64,000 nt of DNA from Candidatus Bathyarchaeia archaeon (GTDB lineage Bacteria; Patescibacteriota; Microgenomatia; PFEM01; JAFGMK01), in the NCBI GenBank assembly GCA_035529595.1, contig DATKWK010000023.1, positions 206,961-270,960 on the forward strand. Reading direction: 5' to 3'. Position numbers and translations under genes: made by a program. Below, piece after piece: positions 10,666 to 58,170 of this stretch; the stretch's first letter is position 1, and the number at the start of each line of letters is the position of its first letter. The notes beneath the pieces are model-generated. The model had not been told where the DNA came from. It saw nothing but the letters and a program-made list of their open reading frames with translations, and did no database searches.

Positions 10666-11922
10666 CTAGCTGATGCGCAATTTTAGAAATCTCCTTTTTC
10701 CTATTCTAATTACCGTCCCGTCGTTTTGAGCGCCTACCTTAAATTCCCGATTGGTCACTGGTAAATCGCTGATTCTTACCGACCCTTGCTGAATTAATCT
10801 TTTGGCTTCACTTCTTGAATTAGCTAATTCGCTTTCGGTTAAGATATCAACCAAAAGCTGTCCTCTCTTTACTTCATAAGTGGAGATTTCTGCCGGCAGT
10901 TCCTTTTTTTGGAATATTTTTTCAAATTTTGTCTGAGCTTCCTCGGCTTCTTTTTTTGAGTACAGCATTTTGACAATTTCTAAAGCCAGCTCCTTCTTTA
11001 TTTTCATTGGATTAGTAGTGCCTTTTTTCAAGGTTTCGCTTATCTTTCTCACTTTTGATAACGGAATATCAGTCAGCAGCTCAAATCCAAGGACAATTAC
11101 TTCATCGGGAAAGGACATGATGCCGCCGTACATGTCGGCAGGCGCGGCGTTTAAAAAAAGGGCATTACCGGTGGTTTTGCCAACTTTTTGTCCTTTCGAG
11201 TCAACCAGCAGTTTGGTAGTGAGGATAAGTTTTTCCTTACCTTTAGTAGCCTTCATCAAAGTTCTTCCGCAAAGCATATTAAAAGTTTGGTCATTCCCTC
11301 CTATTTCAAGATCAACAGCCATCTTGACTGAGTCAATCGCTTGGGCTAACGGATAAAGGAATTCATGCAAAAAGATTGGCTTACCTTCCCTTAAGCGCGT
11401 CTGAAAGAAATCGCGCTCGATCATCTGTTGAACCGTAAAATTGGCTGAAATTTCAATTAAATCTTTAAAAGTTATTTTATCGCTCCAATGACTATTAAAC
11501 ATCATTTTAGCGGCATTAGGGCCGCTGAAATTAAGGATTTTTCCTACCTGCCTTTTCCAGGTTTTTGAATTATCTAAAACCTGCTTTCTGGTCAGTCTGG
11601 GGCGAACGGCTGATTTTTCCGTCGGGTCACCAATCATGCCGGTAAAATCACCAATCAGAAAAATTACCTCATGACCTAGATCTTGGAATTCCTTCAGCTT
11701 AAGAATGCCGACTAGATTACCCAAGTGAAGATTAGGCATTGACGGATCAAACCCTTGGTATAAACGGAGCTTTTTGTCTGATCTTAGTACTTTTTCCAGA
11801 GCCTTTTTTGAGGGGTAAATTTTCTCTACTCCCCTAGTTAAGATTTCTTCAATTTTATCCATAAATTCCTCTTTTAATTGTAAAACAAAAGACGGGCTTT
11901 GTCTATTTGGATTATATTGCAA
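10666..11922 (-). CDS. tyrS: Tyrosine--tRNA ligase
   Basis: Class I HLGN (HIGH-like) motif, KVGKT (KMSKS-like) motif and a C-terminal S4 domain. Confidence 0.8.
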   Translation of the reverse strand: MQYNPNRQSPSFVLQLKEEFMDKIEEILTRGVEKIYPSKKALEKVLRSDKKLRLYQGFDPSMPNLHLGNLVGILKLKEFQDLGHEVIFLIGDFTGMIGDPTEKSAVRPRLTRKQVLDNSKTWKRQVGKILNFSGPNAAKMMFNSHWSDKITFKDLIEISANFTVQQMIERDFFQTRLREGKPIFLHEFLYPLAQAIDSVKMAVDLEIGGNDQTFNMLCGRTLMKATKGKEKLILTTKLLVDSKGQKVGKTTGNALFLNAAPADMYGGIMSFPDEVIVLGFELLTDIPLSKVRKISETLKKGTTNPMKIKKELALEIVKMLYSKKEAEEAQTKFEKIFQKKELPAEISTYEVKRGQLLVDILTESELANSRSEAKRLIQQGSVRISDLPVTNREFKVGAQNDGTVIRIGKRRFLKLRIS

Positions 11923-12808
11923 AGACAGTGCCTTCTTCCGTAATCTGAAAACCAGTTTTTATTACCTGTTTATAAGCTTTGCTTTTTTTATTCAGAACAG
12001 GATTAGTATGGTTGAAATGAATGAAATAAATTTTTCTCCTTTCCAAAAGTGGTAGTTTGGAAAATATCTTGATACTTTCTGAAATTAGAGGATGAGGAAT
12101 TTCCTTGATATTTCTATAAGACAGTTCGCTTTGATCAAAAAAAGTTCCGTCAAGAAAAGCCAAGTCAACCTTTCTAACCATCTCTTTAATATCATTTTTT
12201 AGAAACTCCCATTTGTCGATATCAGGAATAAAGAGCACTTTTTTATTTGGGCCTTCAATAACAAAACCTACGGTTTCTGTGTATTCATCTCGATGGTTTA
12301 CTAAAAAAGGCAAGATTGAAATATGCTTATTCAATTTTGTTTTTTGATTTTTTTGTAATTGTTTAATTTTAATATTTTTTTTCTGAATTAAATCTTTCCA
12401 GGGGCTGTTTGCCAATAAGAATATTTTCATTTTAGGCATGACAAAAACCGGAATTTTCTGAGCATTTAAGATTGCTTTTTCTAAGCATAATAAGCCAGTA
12501 TAGTGACCAATGTGGCCATGAGTTAAAAAGATTCCTTCAAGACCTGGCGGTTTTTTTATGGTTGGGAAAACTTTATTTAGTAAAGCTAACTGAAATTTAA
12601 AATCCGGCGTCGTTTCAATAAGCCATCTTTTTTTAAGTTGGGGATCGATAATAGCCAGACTAGTAGTATTTTTCCTTACAGATAAATCTCCCCAAGCTTT
12701 CCGGCAGCATAAGTTATTACAACCACAATGAGGTACACCGCCGTCCTGAGCAATACCCAGGATAATGATAAACGGGTTAGTTTTGTTTTTGGCAAAGGCT
12801 TGTTTCAT
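11912..12808 (-). CDS. MBL-fold metallo-hydrolase, PqqB-like
   Basis: N-terminal LGIAQDGGVPHCGCNNLCC resembles the PqqB GSAAGGGxPQWNCNC region, and THGHIGHYTG is the beta-lactamase-fold HxHxDH-type motif. It overlaps the tyrS start by 11 nt. Confidence 0.5.
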   Translation of the reverse strand: MKQAFAKNKTNPFIIILGIAQDGGVPHCGCNNLCCRKAWGDLSVRKNTTSLAIIDPQLKKRWLIETTPDFKFQLALLNKVFPTIKKPPGLEGIFLTHGHIGHYTGLLCLEKAILNAQKIPVFVMPKMKIFLLANSPWKDLIQKKNIKIKQLQKNQKTKLNKHISILPFLVNHRDEYTETVGFVIEGPNKKVLFIPDIDKWEFLKNDIKEMVRKVDLAFLDGTFFDQSELSYRNIKEIPHPLISESIKIFSKLPLLERRKIYFIHFNHTNPVLNKKSKAYKQVIKTGFQITEEGTVFAI

Positions 12809-12930
12809 TATCTGATAGTCTGATTATATAATAAAAATACTTTCTCGGGGCTCCCTTTGATATTGGTCTTGCTAGACTTTTATCGCGGGGAGCCCGAGAA
12901 GGCGCTTGGGATGCATTTGCTCAGATTTTT

Positions 12931-13884
12931 TTACAGAACGCCCATCCAGAGTGGGACTGACATGCATTCCTTGGTTGGATGCATGTGGCCATAGAGATCG
13001 TCCTCGCCAAAATTCTCTCCGTGGTCACCGGTTACGAAGACGAATATCTCTCGGCTCGTAATTGATCTTAGACCATCGAAAAGTTGGCCAAACTTGGGAT
13101 CTAGTGCCTCAAGCCCGTTAATCTGCATCTGGTGCAGGTTTTTGGCCTGAGCCGCCAAAACCAGCTTGGTTGTAGCCGAGAGTTTTTGTGATCGGAGATT
13201 TAAGCCTTGGCTTAGTGTTGAGAAGACGGCGTGAACTTCTTCTGGAATTCCCTCGCCCCAGTCGTATGGATAGTGAGGTTCGGGACAATTAATGAAGAGA
13301 AACCATTGGCCATGCCGACCAACATATTTCCCAAGGTGGCTGACAATCTCTTCGACGTGATTGAGGGGAAACGTTTCCGGCTTTCTTTCCGTCAATGGCT
13401 CTTCGTCCATGTCCGGGCCGAAGTAAAAGAACTTCGACCAAGGGAAAGCAGTTCGGAGGAAACTTCCAGTTGAGAACTGGGAAACGCCTCCTACACCAAG
13501 GACATGGAACCCTAGCTGACGGAATCCTTCGATAACATTGTTACCGTCAAAAAGGATACCGCAGCCCTTGCCGGCATCGCGAGCCGGTCCAGTAGTGATC
13601 CTGAATGGCTGCCGAGCTACTTCGTTGTAGTAAGGCTCAAGCGCAGAAGCTATCGACGGAAGATGGCCCAAAAACATGGCCGTGTGGGCGGCTGGGGTGT
13701 AAGGCGAGAGTGTGACCGCTTTCATCATTAGCCCCAGACTGTCTAGGACTGGGGTTCGGGCCGACCCAGCCGTGTCATACCGACAACTGTCTAGGGTGAT
13801 CAGAACTCCATTCAGCCCCTCTAGACTTTCTAGATCAGTTATTTGAGTTTTCATTTTGACCCTCCTCAGGTCTAGTTCTGTCAA
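12931..13884 (-). CDS. Alkaline-phosphatase-superfamily (sulfatase/metalloenzyme-like) protein; visibly GC-richer than its surroundings
   Basis: VTGDHGENFGEDDLYGHMHP metal-site motif. A GAGGAGG RBS lies 7 nt upstream of the ATG. Composition and codon use differ from neighbouring genes. Confidence 0.4.
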   Translation of the reverse strand: MTELDLRRVKMKTQITDLESLEGLNGVLITLDSCRYDTAGSARTPVLDSLGLMMKAVTLSPYTPAAHTAMFLGHLPSIASALEPYYNEVARQPFRITTGPARDAGKGCGILFDGNNVIEGFRQLGFHVLGVGGVSQFSTGSFLRTAFPWSKFFYFGPDMDEEPLTERKPETFPLNHVEEIVSHLGKYVGRHGQWFLFINCPEPHYPYDWGEGIPEEVHAVFSTLSQGLNLRSQKLSATTKLVLAAQAKNLHQMQINGLEALDPKFGQLFDGLRSITSREIFVFVTGDHGENFGEDDLYGHMHPTKECMSVPLWMGVL

Positions 13885-14429
13885 AGAGCAAATGCATCCT
13901 ATATTGTCGGTTCGCGCTTTTTGACGCTGTGTCTGGGCGCAAAAAGACAGTGCACGGGGTAGGATTTACACCTACGAAACCGATTAAGGTGGCGGTTTTA
14001 CAGACCGCTGCATTTGCTACTCTGCCACCCGTGCCTTTCGGGCAATTAAAAAACCGTCCTTAATATAAGGACGGTTTTAACCGTGGTACCACCTTATTTG
14101 TCAGGGTTTGTTGGAATTAACCAAAAAAAACCGCCCAGAGGCGATTTACCCTAACCTCTCCGGCACTCCGGATGAACCGACATGCCTTAGCGCTGTAACG
14201 GGCGCGCCCGGAAGAACTTATTCCCGATCTGAAATTGAGGATTGATTCTTCAGCTCCAAGTGGGTAATTCGATCCGGGGATACGGTAAGCTTTCACCCGC
14301 CGCCTACTCTCTTTTGTCACTCCCCTTCTCTACTTCACCACTCATCAATGCCTTTTTCTAAATTGTTGCGGAATTTATATCATAAATCTTTTGCTCTTGT
14401 CAAGTTAATGTGTTAGAATTTTTACTGAA

Positions 14430-54438: not shown

Positions 54439-55647
54439 TTAGTTTGACCTGGCATGAGTTAATTTTTCAATCATAGTAAGAGACTTTTTCCGGTAAGAAA
54501 AGCCGAAGAGAATCATCAGCATAATAAAAAAAATATTAACCAAAAATACCGTGCGGAGAGAAGCTAAATCAGCGATCAAACCGAAAAAAACTGGCGAAAA
54601 GGCGTCGGCAATCGCATCAGTAGTTTCACTAAGTCCGAAAATAATATTATATGAAGTAGATGATACAGATTCTCCGAGCATAGTCTTAATTACCGGTGAA
54701 GTACCTTTAGAAAATATCCCTAAAAGGAAAGAAATAATATATAAGATTAAAGATATTTTGCTGAAACCAATAAGAAACGAAAAAATAATCATTCCGATTT
54801 CAGCGGTTAATAAAGAAGAGAAACTGCCTCTTTTATCAGCCAGGATCCCCAGTAAATTTTTTCCAAGCAGACTGCCGGCAAAATAAGCAGATAAGGCGAT
54901 ACCAATTGCTTCTTGTTTTCCCGTGATCGAGAGGGCTAAGAAGGGTAAGAAAATATTAATCGGCTCTTGAGTGAAGCAATCAAGTGCACTTAAGATTACG
55001 GCATAGACAAAAGCCGCTTTTCTTTTAATTAAGGCAAGGTTAACTTTTCTGATAAAATCTCTCATTGATTCTACTTTAGTTTCAATAAAGGAAGCTTTTT
55101 TCTTGGATCCGGCGCCATAACTGGTAAACAAGGCTAAGATTCCCAGTCCCCCCAGAATGCAGGTAGTCGGTTGCCAGCCAATTTTGGTCAACAAAAAAGT
55201 TGCCAGAGCCGGAATTACAATTTTGCCTAAATCTCCAGCAGAAGTCATTAACCCTAAGTTTTTCCCGAGTTGATTACGGGGTGAACTTTTGGCTACAAAA
55301 GCTGATCCAATCGGATGGAAGGCGGAAAACCCGACACCTGCCAGAGAATAAATAATTATGGCGATCGGGTACCAAAGTGATGTTCGTAAAGCAAGAATCG
55401 CAATAGAATAACAGATTAAGCCCGCCCGAAGCACAATTAAGTCACCTTTTTTTCGGGCTACCATCGAAGCAGGCAAAGTAGTCAAGGCTTGAATACCAAC
55501 TAAACAACTGCCTAAAAATCCGGCCTGGGTGTAAGTTAAATTTAAAGTTTTAGCAAGATACGGGATTAGAGCAATGATGGCAATTCGAAAGCCGTCATTT
55601 AAGACATGAAAAAAACTGATAATGAAAATTGGGGAATGAAGGAACAT
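54439..55647 (-). CDS. MFS transporter
   Basis: 12-TM pattern with the conserved G-x-x-x-D/R-x-G-R-K/R-like loop MVARKKGD between TM2 and TM3. Confidence 0.7.
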   Translation of the reverse strand: MFLHSPIFIISFFHVLNDGFRIAIIALIPYLAKTLNLTYTQAGFLGSCLVGIQALTTLPASMVARKKGDLIVLRAGLICYSIAILALRTSLWYPIAIIIYSLAGVGFSAFHPIGSAFVAKSSPRNQLGKNLGLMTSAGDLGKIVIPALATFLLTKIGWQPTTCILGGLGILALFTSYGAGSKKKASFIETKVESMRDFIRKVNLALIKRKAAFVYAVILSALDCFTQEPINIFLPFLALSITGKQEAIGIALSAYFAGSLLGKNLLGILADKRGSFSSLLTAEIGMIIFSFLIGFSKISLILYIISFLLGIFSKGTSPVIKTMLGESVSSTSYNIIFGLSETTDAIADAFSPVFFGLIADLASLRTVFLVNIFFIMLMILFGFSYRKKSLTMIEKLTHARSN

Positions 55648-55670
55648 TTTTAGCTAAAATTAATCTTGAT

Positions 55671-55868
55671 TTATTGCTCTTCCTCTTGGCTCTTTTGCTC
55701 CTCCAGTTTGGCTTCCTCAAGCAGGGCGTAATAAGCGTCCCAGAGTTCCTTGGCCACCCGGTGATAGCCCTTCCTCTCGGCTTGATTGGCTTGCCATTTT
55801 ATATCTTCGGCCAGTTTACGGTCGTAATAGGCATCGGTTGCCGGATCATCATAATTTGCCATCTTCAC
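55671..55868 (-). CDS. Small acidic hypothetical protein
   Basis: 65-aa ORF; no motif recognised. Confidence 0.3.
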   Translation of the reverse strand: MKMANYDDPATDAYYDRKLAEDIKWQANQAERKGYHRVAKELWDAYYALLEEAKLEEQKSQEEEQ

Positions 55869-55951
55869 CTCCTCTAAAGCTCATTTTATCAGAAATTTAG
55901 ACGTTTGGGGATATCTCCGAAGCTACAGCTTATAAAAGCATAAATTCTCTT

Positions 55952-56112
55952 GGGGTGAGCGACGGGAATCGAACCCGCAACATCTCCGGTAGGGAGGGGT
56001 GAGTGAGGGGAATCGCACCCCCGACCTCCTGTTCCACAGACAGGCGCTCTAACTACTGAGCTACACCCACCCCACCTCATCGGAGTGTTCTACCATTAAA
56101 CTACGCTCACCA
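55952..56112 (-). other. Outer tRNA-like gene (G-1, acceptor GTGAGCG/CGCTCAC, Gly-like D arm, canonical T arm, C73 and encoded CCA) whose anticodon region contains the tRNA-His gene
   Basis: 5' half g-GTGAGCG TA GTTT AATGGTA GAAC A CTCCG ATGAGGTGGG[tRNA-His]; 3' half CCTCCCTAC CGGAG ATGTT GCGGG TTCGATT CCCGT CGCTCAC C CCA. Confidence 0.45.
55998..56071 (-). tRNA. tRNA-His(GTG) with an encoded G-1 and an atypical T-loop (TGCGATT)
   Basis: g-GTGGGTG TA GCTC AGTAGTTA GAGC G CCTGT CTGTGGA ACAGG AGGTC GGGGG TGCGATT CCCCT CACTCAC C. Nested inside a second tRNA-like gene. Confidence 0.7.
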
Positions 56113-56144
56113 AATCTTGGATTTGTAAATTGTTAAGCAATTAG

Positions 56145-56217
56145 TGCGCCCAGGAGGAATCGAACCTCCAGTCTACTGCTTAGAAGGCAGTTGCTTTGTC
56201 CGTTAAGCTATGGGCGC
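56145..56217 (-). tRNA. tRNA-Arg(TCT)
   Basis: GCGCCCATAGCTTAACGGACAAAGC..., anticodon loop CTTCTAA, T-loop GGTTCGATTCC. Confidence 0.85.
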
Positions 56218-56222
56218 AACTT

Positions 56223-56296
56223 TGGAGCGGGATACGGGAGTTGAACCCGTCTTTCCACCTTGGAAGGGTAGCGTTGGGCCGCTCAACTAATCCCGC
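56223..56296 (-). tRNA. tRNA-Gly(TCC)
   Basis: GCGGGATTAGTTGAGCGGCCCAAC..., anticodon loop CTTCCAA, T-loop GGGTTCAACTCCCGT; CCA encoded. Confidence 0.85.
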
Positions 56297-56376
56297 ACTA
56301 TAGACATTAAAAATATTATTGTCTGGTTAATTTTACAAAAAACGAAGCGTAAAAACAATTGGCACGGCTACGTGGC

Positions 56377-58170
56377 CTAATGGATTTCTGATTTTTTTTC
56401 CTTTAAAAAGGAGCTCCAACTCTCAATAAAGCCAATAAACGTTGAGAACGGCATATCAACCAAAGCAATAAAAAAGACGCTGACAATATTATATTCTTTC
56501 CATTTATTGGATAGCCATTGGCCGATCTTACCCATTGGCACGGATAAAATGTCTATTGAAAATTCCCAAAAGCTGGTTCTTTCCTCAATGGTTAATTCTT
56601 TCGCTCTTTGCTTAATTACCAAGGCTGCCGAGACAATCATGGCGACATTTAAAGTGTCGATATAAAGGGAGGTGACAGGAATTTTTGCCAAGCGAAAAAC
56701 CCAAAAGACCAGCGCCAGAGAGGCAATCGTCCCGGCCGCGTAAAAGAGACTGACTACAAACCAGAGCAGGGATTTTGTTTTCTTTCGCATTCTTATCTCG
56801 TAAATATCTTTTTCATCCGATCGATATACAATTTTTAATATCTCTATTACTACCCGGTTTAGATTTTCCGGACGAGGCGGTCTGACCAGAAGCACCAAAA
56901 TTGCCATTAGAGCAGTTGGTAACAAAATATCAATGGTCATTGCCAGCGGTTTCCATTCGCCATAGATTAATTTAGCCAGAGGAACCTCGAAAATAAATAG
57001 GGATAAGGCGCCGGCGATAAAAATTGACAGGGTCGAATAGACAGCTGACCGGTAGAGACGTCCCTTCAAAGTTGACAGCCGTTTAGTGTAAGCATCTCGA
57101 ATTAGTTGAGTCAGTTCTTTGGGTTTACCCAGAGTAGGAATAACATCACTTGGCTTTTTCTCATACTGATCGAGAATATCGCCTAAAATAATATAAAGCG
57201 TGTCGTATTTTTCACAAATACGAAAAAAAGTACTGGAGAGAGAATGAGATAAATTTTTTTCAATTTGATTTTTGATAGTGATGATATTTTGAGTTATTTG
57301 GTCAAGTAAATTGTTTGGTAAATCGTCCCATTCGGGCCAGCGATTTTTTAGAAGATGGTAAGAAATTATCGGATCATCAAGATGGAAAAGAGTTCGCCTG
57401 ACGGCAATAAACAACTGTGTTGCTTTCTCCTCTTGACTAAGTGCACCTTCTGGTATAATTTTAATTCTTTCATCCATCAATTGAAACATACACTCCATTA
57501 GCGCTTTTTGCCTAATAGGTGAAGCTAATAGCTCCTCGACTTCACAGGCGGCGATTTCCAACATCCAAGTATAAAGATTGATCTTTTGTTTAATTTTGGG
57601 GACAGCTTCCTGTTTAGCTAGAGGGTTTTTTTCGAGGATGTAGGTGTATTTTTCTAATAACTTTTGTACCTTAGCGACTTGAGATCTTGGTATTTTGCCA
57701 TTGGGAAAATGACCGCCTCTGATTAATTCGAGTATCAGCGGTTCGGCAATCTTTTGCGGTTCAAAGCCACTTACTAGGCTAATACCGGAAATTTCGGAAA
57801 TCATTTTTCGCTTTAGAATTCTTTCGATTGCCGCACGTCGAACCAGATGTTCTTCTTTCCAATCAACAATTTTTCTGATCTTCTCATAGAAAAGAGCTAC
57901 CCGGGAGGCAATTTCATCAACATAAAGAGTAGCAATCTCCGTTTTCTTTGACCGTTCGCGGTAATAATCCCGATAGTTTAAGAAGAGCCTGTAAATCGGC
58001 TCGGAAAAAGGTGTTTCTTCGAAGGACTCTGCTTTCTTTTCCTGCTTACGCGTCGTTGCCTGTGCCGGATTTTGAGTTAGCGTTTCCACTACTCTTTCGG
58101 CTTCAAGCAGCAATTCTTCTTCCTTTTCTTGGGCCTGTTGGATTTTTCGAGCACTGAAAATTGTGATCAT
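56377..58170 (-). CDS. Hypothetical polytopic membrane protein (597 aa)
   Basis: Soluble N-terminal half, then 6-8 TM helices; no motif recognised. Confidence 0.4.
   Translation of the reverse strand: MITIFSARKIQQAQEKEEELLLEAERVVETLTQNPAQATTRKQEKKAESFEETPFSEPIYRLFLNYRDYYRERSKKTEIATLYVDEIASRVALFYEKIRKIVDWKEEHLVRRAAIERILKRKMISEISGISLVSGFEPQKIAEPLILELIRGGHFPNGKIPRSQVAKVQKLLEKYTYILEKNPLAKQEAVPKIKQKINLYTWMLEIAACEVEELLASPIRQKALMECMFQLMDERIKIIPEGALSQEEKATQLFIAVRRTLFHLDDPIISYHLLKNRWPEWDDLPNNLLDQITQNIITIKNQIEKNLSHSLSSTFFRICEKYDTLYIILGDILDQYEKKPSDVIPTLGKPKELTQLIRDAYTKRLSTLKGRLYRSAVYSTLSIFIAGALSLFIFEVPLAKLIYGEWKPLAMTIDILLPTALMAILVLLVRPPRPENLNRVVIEILKIVYRSDEKDIYEIRMRKKTKSLLWFVVSLFYAAGTIASLALVFWVFRLAKIPVTSLYIDTLNVAMIVSAALVIKQRAKELTIEERTSFWEFSIDILSVPMGKIGQWLSNKWKEYNIVSVFFIALVDMPFSTFIGFIESWSSFLKEKKSEIH

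Follow-up and report, generated by a model that had tools for sequence, protein, structure and literature searches.

We investigated a 64-kb window of DNA (the window denotes this whole stretch) within an ~847-kb contig, the minus strand of which carries a run of tRNA genes. The run begins with tRNA-Gly(TCC), which has an encoded CCA (56223..56296, −; ARAGORN, Rfam 56.1 bits), and continues 5 nt past this gene with tRNA-Arg(TCT), which has no encoded CCA (56144..56217, −; ARAGORN, Rfam 75.5 bits). Located 32 nt past tRNA-Arg(TCT) is a unit of 161 nt (56111–55951, −) in which one tRNA gene is nested inside another. This unit consists of the 31-nt 5′ half of an outer tRNA, a 92-nt insert, and the 38-nt 3′ half of the outer tRNA; the insert, which is a complete tRNA-His(GUG) with a 9-nt flank on each side, splits the outer anticodon loop. 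The initial annotation had given the unit as 55952–56112, which direct reading shows to be off by one base. Its account of the run with tRNA-Gly(TCC) and tRNA-Arg(TCT), of the inner gene at 55998–56071 (−) with G-1, C73, and a UGCGAUU T loop, and of the parts of the outer halves (G-1, acceptor strands, D arm, stems, T arm, C73, and CCA) agreed with our rereading.

The inner tRNA-His(GTG) (55998..56071, −) was called by both ARAGORN and Rfam (65.6 bits against a gathering score of 29; E = 1.5e-13). It has an encoded G-1 at 56071, the acceptor stem GTGGGTG/CACTCAC, the D loop AGUAGUUA, the above T loop, and C73 at 55998, directly 3′ of which stands CCT, not CCA. The two outer halves were read from the sequence. 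The 5′ half (56081..56111, −) comprises G-1 (56111), the acceptor strand GTGAGCG (56110–56104), U8 and A9 (TA), the D arm GTTT-AATGGTA-GAAC (56101–56087), A26, and the anticodon stem strand CTCCG (56085–56081). The 3′ half (55951..55988, −) comprises the anticodon stem strand CGGAG (55988–55984), the variable loop ATGTT, the T arm GCGGG-TTCGATT-CCCGT, the acceptor strand CGCTCAC (55961–55955), C73 (55954), and an encoded CCA (55953–55951). The positions that form tertiary pairs in the outer body are all canonical (U8-A14, A15-U48, G18 G19, G53-C61, and T54-A58), and its T loop is the sole canonical T loop in the window outside the called tRNAs. Between the inner gene and the outer halves lie the 5′ flank ATGAGGTGG (56072..56080, −), which contains a remnant of the outer anticodon loop and the inner tRNA leader, and the 3′ flank CCTCCCTAC (55989..55997, −), which contains the inner tRNA trailer and the other loop remnant. 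An open reading frame at 55889–56080 overlaps the nested locus, and gene callers may predict a protein over the outer gene; a spurious 63-aa open reading frame overlapping the tRNAs gave no matches when used as a query.

ARAGORN did not call the outer gene with the intron search either on or off; thus, the intron-aware run that the initial annotation had proposed recovered the inner tRNA-His but missed the outer gene. When the outer halves were joined by any 7-nt loop, ARAGORN accepted the product as a tRNA. We also ran a deletion test, in which each tRNA was removed with 0–25 flanking bases per side and ARAGORN was asked for a new tRNA spanning the junction. Among 533 tRNAs from the window and from fetched metagenome loci, the nested-His locus gave 110 junction-spanning variants, whereas 516 of the 533 gave none and the best non-nested locus, a tandem partial duplicate (L057), gave 39. 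The maximum among 1072 tRNAs of phage contigs, which had been picked by the same pattern, was 24. Additionally, the 161-nt RNA had a predicted minimum free energy (MFE) of −74.7 kcal/mol (z = −4.06), and 0 of 200 shuffled sequences folded as well. In the MFE fold, the outer T arm and the 8-bp outer acceptor stem both form, and a single extended helix runs from the outer anticodon stem through the paired flanks into the inner acceptor stem. The earlier proposal that the flanks can extend the outer anticodon stem and place the inner tRNA at the tip of a long helix was therefore borne out by the fold. The deletion test and the fold z-score confirmed that the nested arrangement exceeds chance.

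A mis-join of two tRNA-His loci during assembly could produce a similar arrangement. Logan contigs of two runs do break within the 5′ part of the inner tRNA-His, which suggests that the 31-mer there has another context in those samples. However, the 5′ junction was matched base for base by one Logan contig (L132) and the 3′ junction by another (L001), from two other sequencing runs, and the reproduction of the junctions in independent runs argues that the arrangement is not an assembly artifact. Furthermore, the inner and outer genes have no long repeat in common, and each of the other nested loci described below recurs unchanged in two to five independent assemblies. We thus regard a chimera as exceedingly improbable.

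The bacterial gene content of the window includes RecG, PBP1A, bacterial TyrRS, ThrRS, PheS/T, IF3, trigger factor, ThiI, and RNase III, and a T-box leader is also present. The closest relatives of a 597-aa protein encoded upstream of the nested locus (39–57% identity) are found in metagenome-assembled genomes (MAGs) of Shapirobacteria and Amesbacteria. Based on this gene set, the T-box, and the 597-aa protein relatives, the host is assigned to the Microgenomates (CPR bacteria), as an uncultivated, ultra-small bacterium. A phage origin of the window was ruled out by its cellular, bacterial genes. An archaeal origin was likewise rejected: the NCBI label "Bathyarchaeia" on an identical MFS protein is a mislabel, given the T-box and the bacterial RecG, PBP1A, TyrRS, ThrRS, and PheT. 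The neighbors of the nested locus encode a P-type ATPase, an MFS transporter, a sugar dehydratase, and membrane proteins. An MBL-fold protein encoded at 11912–12808 was considered as a candidate RNase Z and found unconvincing. Some tRNAs of the genome have an encoded CCA and some do not; therefore, a CCA-adding route must exist in the host. Directly upstream of tRNA-Gly is a promoter-like site (CAGACA, 17 nt, TATAGT; 56297..56325, −), which matches the consensus at only 9 of 12 positions and is a possible start of a transcript covering tRNA-Gly, tRNA-Arg, and the nested tRNA-His. No terminator-like site was found on the minus strand between these genes, and together with the promoter-like site this makes a single transcript probable.

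The acceptor end of the outer tRNA is of the histidine type: G-1 stands opposite C73, the acceptor starts with G1-U2-G3, and CCA follows. The G1-U2-G3 start was present in most tRNA-His genes collected for comparison, and among the 11 called tRNAs and the outer gene of the window, C73 was confined to the two histidine-type genes. The outer T arm is also identical to that of an Amesbacteria tRNA-His. With respect to membership in tRNA-His, the inner gene scores above the Rfam threshold and has the GUG anticodon and the G-1:C73 pair; the outer gene has the G-1:C73 pair and the acceptor starting with GUG, but it has no 7-nt loop with a GUG anticodon, either encoded or after a single excision. In fact, the remnants can be combined into a 7-nt loop in eight ways, and these gave CCT, GCT, GAT, or GAG, and never GTG. 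The initial annotation had read the loop as A-U-GAG-G; these letters are indeed present, but GAG (Leu) is one option beside CCT, GCT, and GAT. None of the four anticodons fits a histidine acceptor, and a histidine loop is conceivable only with one added G (ATG | T-AC). Because no 7-nt loop from the remnants yields GUG, the outer gene cannot give a histidine-decoding tRNA by single or simple excision.

We compared the locus with known kinds of interrupted tRNA genes. To our knowledge, interruptions of tRNA genes in bacteria are group I introns only, and those in archaea are bulge-helix-bulge (BHB) introns and split genes. As in the archaeal split and BHB-intron tRNA genes, such as those of Nanoarchaeum equitans, the break here lies in or near the anticodon loop and complementary G+C-rich flanks stack on the anticodon stem. 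Unlike those genes, the host is bacterial, the halves are in cis and colinear, no BHB is present, and the insert is a whole tRNA. We defined a BHB as two 3-nt bulges 4 bp apart at the exon–intron boundaries; neither manual pairing nor the MFE fold contained one, and the helix instead runs on continuously, with A-C mismatches between the opposed loop remnants and without staggered bulges. We also know of no splicing endonuclease in this CPR lineage. The C/D box sRNA in the intron of Haloferax tRNA-Trp is another small functional RNA within the intervening sequence of a tRNA gene; that case, however, is archaeal and BHB-processed with a spliced host tRNA, whereas here a tRNA is the cargo and nothing supports splicing of the outer gene. 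Group I introns in the anticodon loops of bacterial tRNAs, such as the cyanobacterial tRNA-Leu(UAA), share with this locus a bacterial gene that is interrupted in its anticodon loop. They are defined by an Rfam core and a length of at least 200 nt, whereas the insert here is 92 nt and forms a tRNA fold, not a ribozyme with a P1–P9 core; a permissive Rfam scan of 55000–57000 returned only tRNA-type matches. A permuted gene, which the initial annotation had listed as one option, does not fit the colinear order of the halves, in which the 5′ half (56111–56081) lies upstream of the 3′ half (55988–55951). For mobile elements in tRNA genes (the anticodon-loop integrase class), the anticodon loop likewise serves as the insertion point, and the insert brings sequence that preserves function. 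The insert here differs in being ~90 bp long and gene-free, in bringing a complete tRNA where such elements bring a substitute 3′ part, and in having neither a crossover repeat nor an integrase nearby. An integrated element would be expected to be of kilobase scale, to encode an integrase or transposase, and to be bounded by a direct repeat of the tRNA 3′ segment; no integrase or transposase was seen in the window, no direct repeat was found, and the 3′ half of the inner gene does not repeat that of the outer gene.

We then searched for nested tRNA genes elsewhere by scanning metagenome contigs for two T loops 25–50 nt apart (at least 120 matches), followed by the deletion test, and applied the same scan to IMG/VR. 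At least five further nested tRNA genes were found, four from metagenome contigs (among the matches listed) and one from the viral scan; one belongs to Gottesmanbacteria (L089), one lies on an IMG/VR viral contig (L183), and three are on unassigned contigs (L062, L073, and L118). The class is defined by a complete tRNA within the anticodon loop or arm of a second body that has intact acceptor, D, and T arms, as found at the window locus, L089, L073, L118, L062, and L183. L089, which was assigned to Gottesmanbacteria from a neighboring protein, has a tRNA-Thr(GGU) in a tRNA-Thr(GGU) directly upstream of rpmG, and is identical in L114, L133, and L136 (four independent contigs). L062 has a tRNA-Thr(UGU) inside a near-identical copy of itself. 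In L118, to which L143 is identical, a tRNA with a UAU anticodon lies inside a tRNA-Thr(UGU)-like body. L073, identical in five assemblies, has a tRNA-Gly(CCC) inside a glycine-type body with a 13-bp flank helix; its outer glycine anticodon is irrecoverable despite the glycine-type acceptor. In L183, on a 252-kb contig, a 16-bp helix bears a tRNA-Arg(CCU) at its tip; the acceptor, D, and T arms of the outer body are perfect, and an anticodon loop is lacking. No relatives of this locus were found in IMG/VR. The L183 contig also encodes a Thg1-like enzyme. Across the nested loci, the amino-acid type of the inner gene usually matches that of the outer, the flanks are complementary in all except L118, and CCA is encoded by 3 of the 6 outer genes and 0 of the 6 inner genes. 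L062 and L089 have a flank motif in common (CCTGCCCGCC ... GGCAGGCG(C)GG), and the flanks of none of the nested loci matched an Rfam family. The loop remnants fall into two groups: those of L062, L089, and L118 (4 nt + 3 nt) rebuild an exact 7-nt threonine loop with the expected anticodon, whereas no cognate loop can be rebuilt at the window locus, L073, and L183.

The exact threonine loops bear on the suggestion in the initial annotation that the inner tRNA is a tRNA-shaped intron. According to this explanation, the inner tRNA would be excised by RNase P and a 3′ endonuclease, and the outer halves would be trimmed and ligated so that both tRNAs mature; if the window locus were broken where the tRNA-Thr loci are, between positions 35 and 36, its outer loop would be AUGAUAC with the anticodon GAU (Ile). 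Beyond the rebuilt loops of L062, L089, and L118, the intact outer gene of the window ends in CCA, and its complementary flanks beside the halves recall the split tRNA genes of Nanoarchaeum, in which halves stand next to such flanks. The ends produced by RNase P and RNase Z would be a 3′-OH and a 5′-phosphate, which an ATP-dependent RNA ligase joins. However, the two putative splice sites stand on either side of a mismatch rather than in two bulges 4 bp apart, and if RNase P and RNase Z were the only nucleases to cut, 18 surplus nucleotides would remain at the window locus and as many as 39 at the others. In any spliced product, a non-histidine anticodon would be joined to an acceptor of the histidine type, so that histidine would be misincorporated. 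Neither an RNA ligase nor the splicing endonuclease EndA and the ligase RtcB is encoded in the 64-kb window, and we know of no protein-based tRNA splicing in bacteria, nor of a ligase or splicing endonuclease for it; a full-text literature search likewise returned no report of such introns. Given also the lack of a BHB, a group I intron, an Rfam match for the flanks, and a GUG anticodon by excision, the tRNA-shaped intron is unsupported, and we consider it quite doubtful.

An ancestral, uninterrupted state was identified for the Gottesmanbacteria locus. Homologs of its 193-aa neighboring protein led to three syntenic loci (L137, L139, and L141; 60–66% protein identity), and at each of them the tRNA-Thr(GGU) that immediately precedes rpmG is of the ordinary, uninterrupted kind. 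In L089, the outer gene retains the 3′ context of these relatives and the GCGGG/CCCGC T stem of the nearest one, whereas the acceptor and T stems of the inner gene differ. Since the three syntenic relatives are uninterrupted and share the T stem and 3′ context with the outer gene, comparison of these loci indicates that the outer gene is the resident and the inner gene the newcomer, and that nesting at L089 is a recent, lineage-specific derived insertion. The comparison with relatives that the initial annotation had called for thus gave an un-nested state at this analogous locus.

In the case of the window locus, searches by sequence and by neighboring proteins found no close relative of the genome and no un-nested state. 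The tRNA cluster adjoined none of the relatives of the 597-aa protein in Shapirobacteria and Amesbacteria MAGs, and one relative of the downstream MFS protein (68% identity) lies on a contig that stops 130 nt upstream of the gene. An exact search for the outer 5′ half in IMG/VR and JGI metagenomes returned nothing, and blastn of the locus against GenBank phages returned generic tRNA segments only. As for a phage donor of the inner tRNA-His, no T-arm match was found among the phages searched; one phage tRNA-Val has the same D arm.

Instead of a cassette arriving from elsewhere, local duplication of two halves of one gene could have produced the outer halves. L062 offers a precedent, as its inner and outer genes are nearly identical and its 3′ half and trailer together form the 55-nt unit of an exact tandem repeat, with two copies in JGI assemblies and one copy in an ENA assembly (L274); nesting at L062 is partly a copy-number-variable 55-nt tandem repeat and needs caution. 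In the window, 5 of the 7 acceptor base pairs are common to the inner and outer tRNAs. However, their D arms, anticodon stems, variable loops, and T arms all differ; therefore, a duplication would have to be old, and an old outer copy that is not under selection should have decayed. Duplication at the window locus is thus highly doubtful.

The explanation that we prefer, with a rough probability of 0.5, is that a resident tRNA-His was interrupted by a tRNA-His cassette, that only the inner gene decodes, and that the outer halves are a recent relic or a processing by-product. Among the options in the initial annotation, insertion of a second tRNA-His into an older one is the best fit, considering the histidine signature of the outer acceptor, the C73 unique to histidine-type genes, and the analogous L089. 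A cassette of ~90 bp, made up of a second tRNA-His(GUG) and short, mutually pairing flanks, would have entered the anticodon loop of the resident gene. The run of tRNA-Gly, tRNA-Arg, and the nested tRNA-His would yield one transcript, in which RNase P would cleave 5′ of the inner G-1 and a 3′ nuclease and the CCA-adding enzyme would finish the inner 3′ end, which has no encoded CCA. The inner tRNA would then serve as the decoding tRNA-His of the cell. The outer halves may stay annealed through the 8-bp acceptor stem and the stem-plus-flank helix, as a nicked, anticodon-less, tRNA-like by-product. We propose that the perfect structure of the outer body reflects how recent the event is and not a role in decoding.

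Several features speak against a mere relic. That every stem and tertiary position of the outer gene is intact would be surprising for a dead gene unless the event was very recent, and the near-continuous helix of outer anticodon stem and flanks at the window locus, L073, and L183 looks selected rather than accidental. An annealed outer RNA, with its G-1:C73 pair and CCA, should also suit HisRS and could be costly if useless. The intact outer body, the helix in three loci, and the cost of a chargeable RNA favor a functional scaffold or a two-piece RNA, namely, a non-decoding outer body that is kept by selection and presents, stabilizes, or times the release of the inner tRNA, or annealed halves that act as an anticodon-less, histidine-chargeable RNA. 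The flawless outer arms with the anticodon loop gone would fit such a role, as would the same design at L073 and L183, which have long helices and no outer glycine anticodon and no anticodon loop, respectively, and the preference for CCA in outer over inner genes. An engineered "tRNA scaffold" is a laboratory design in which an RNA replaces the anticodon loop for recombinant RNA expression, and it resembles the nested loci in that a body with intact acceptor, D, and T arms has its anticodon stem lengthened to carry a structured RNA of foreign origin. It differs in that the natural cargo is a tRNA, which RNase P should excise, and the stabilizing role of the outer body here is putative. Moreover, when a 5′ leader is paired with a 3′ trailer, the action of RNase P is normally impeded, not promoted. 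Each nested locus represents a single lineage in the collections searched and thus provides no covariation, and we know of no function for an anticodon-less tRNA-His. The exact loop remnants of the three tRNA-Thr loci also fit simple insertion better. We therefore hold selection for the outer body to be somewhat unlikely, and retain the interruption of a resident tRNA-His by a tRNA-His cassette as our main explanation.

A broader proposal is that both RNAs are put to use in CPR bacteria, and also in one or more very large phages, with the inner one released as a tRNA-shaped intron and the outer one ligated or kept annealed and chargeable. We consider this unlikely; the nested gene probably marks a previously undescribed mode of tRNA gene interruption and not a new splicing system. 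Our full-text literature search turned up neither an account of one tRNA nested in another nor one of non-group-I tRNA introns in CPR bacteria, and there is a modest chance that the nested tRNA is categorically new. A whole tRNA in the anticodon loop of another would be a third kind of interruption, occurring in at least six independent lineages. In practical terms, the outer gene of such a pair is missed by gene finders. If the outer body is used, these loci would amount either to a naturally occurring version of the laboratory tRNA scaffold or to a new route of splicing, and if both RNAs are used, with the outer one ligated or annealed, they would represent a route of tRNA maturation not known in bacteria. 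If only insertion is involved, the loci would point to a process that aims tRNA cassettes at anticodon loops, usually those of tRNAs of the same amino-acid type, and such a process could swap a resident tRNA without loss of function.

The inner tRNA-His gene (window 55998-56071) may have a second genomic context. Two Logan contigs from separate runs, one covering the 3' junction of the nested locus (L001) and the other the 5' junction (L132), both end within the first 30 nt of this gene: L001 at L001:1 (window 56070) and L132 at L132:3839 (about window 56042). These contig ends suggest that the same 31-mer of the inner tRNA-His has another upstream sequence elsewhere in those communities, which could belong to an un-nested copy or a cassette donor. 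We also found a 63-codon ORF on the minus strand (window 55889-56080), which starts with an ATG in the 5' flank and extends across the inner tRNA as well as the outer 3' half. No homologs of this ORF were found in the protein collection, and it is almost certainly spurious, although it could end up annotated as a gene.

The inner tRNA-His carries the D loop AGUAGUUA, with AG in place of the usual GG, and the T loop UGCGAUU, with G at position 55. The same pair of changes was found in the tRNA-Tyr of the window (13950-14034) and, on an IMG/VR phage contig (L153:5639-5791), in both tRNA-Val and tRNA-Asn. The AG D loop and the G55 T loop may represent a variant tRNA elbow in which the two changes covary.

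The tRNA-Tyr(GTA) gene (window 14034-13950, minus strand) lies directly 3' of a T-box leader (window 14357-14064, minus strand; 94.5 bits, gathering score 93), and is followed on the same strand by two ORFs, the first hydrolase-like and the second with an MBL fold, and then tyrS (window 11922-10666), the whole region spanning window 10666-14357. The operon, including the cognate tRNA-Tyr gene as its first gene, appears to be under T-box control. A T-box ahead of an operon whose first gene is the cognate tRNA itself is an unusual arrangement.

Some public records bearing on these loci look misassigned. A protein identical to the MFS protein encoded downstream of the nested locus (P0001, window 54439-55647) is labelled in NCBI as derived from a 'Candidatus Bathyarchaeia archaeon' MAG, on a contig of about 847 kb, and this assignment looks wrong because the window is clearly bacterial (CPR). 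Similarly, the related loci L002-L004, all three filed under 'uncultured Gammaproteobacteria', look like Microgenomates too.

Among the other nested loci, the assemblies disagree on that of tRNA-Thr(UGU) (L062:4054-4256, L274, and L275): a 55-nt unit comprising the 3' half plus trailer occurs twice in two JGI contigs and once in an ENA contig. In the one-copy form, a spacer separates a 5' half from the full tRNA that follows it. On a 252-kb IMG/VR contig, tRNA-Arg(CCU) sits atop a 16-bp helix within a tRNA-like body lacking an anticodon loop (L183:6606-6790), with a Thg1-like gene (tRNA-His guanylyltransferase family) 4.5 kb upstream and a gene for an HNH endonuclease downstream.

In two Gottesmanbacteria relatives of the nested locus L089, a conserved structured element of approximately 140 nt (L139:1581-1715 and L141:1562-1705) lies between a promoter-like site and the un-nested tRNA-Thr(GGU). 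Its opening resembles the 5' half of a tRNA-Thr (GCCyGGATGGCTCAG ... GAGCGAGTACTTG) whose D loop contains an extra hairpin, and it continues with mutually exclusive hairpins; it had no Rfam match, and the two sequences provide only one compensatory pair. In one of these relatives, an IS200/IS605-type Y1 transposase gene (L141:3066-3740) lies downstream of the tRNA-Thr/rpmG locus, at a distance of approximately 1.3 kb.

Finally, tRNAs with a UAU anticodon, which reads AUA, were found in a Shapirobacteria locus (L005:183-259) and as the inner gene of another nested locus (L118:1680-1751). This fits with AUA decoding without lysidine in some of these bacteria.
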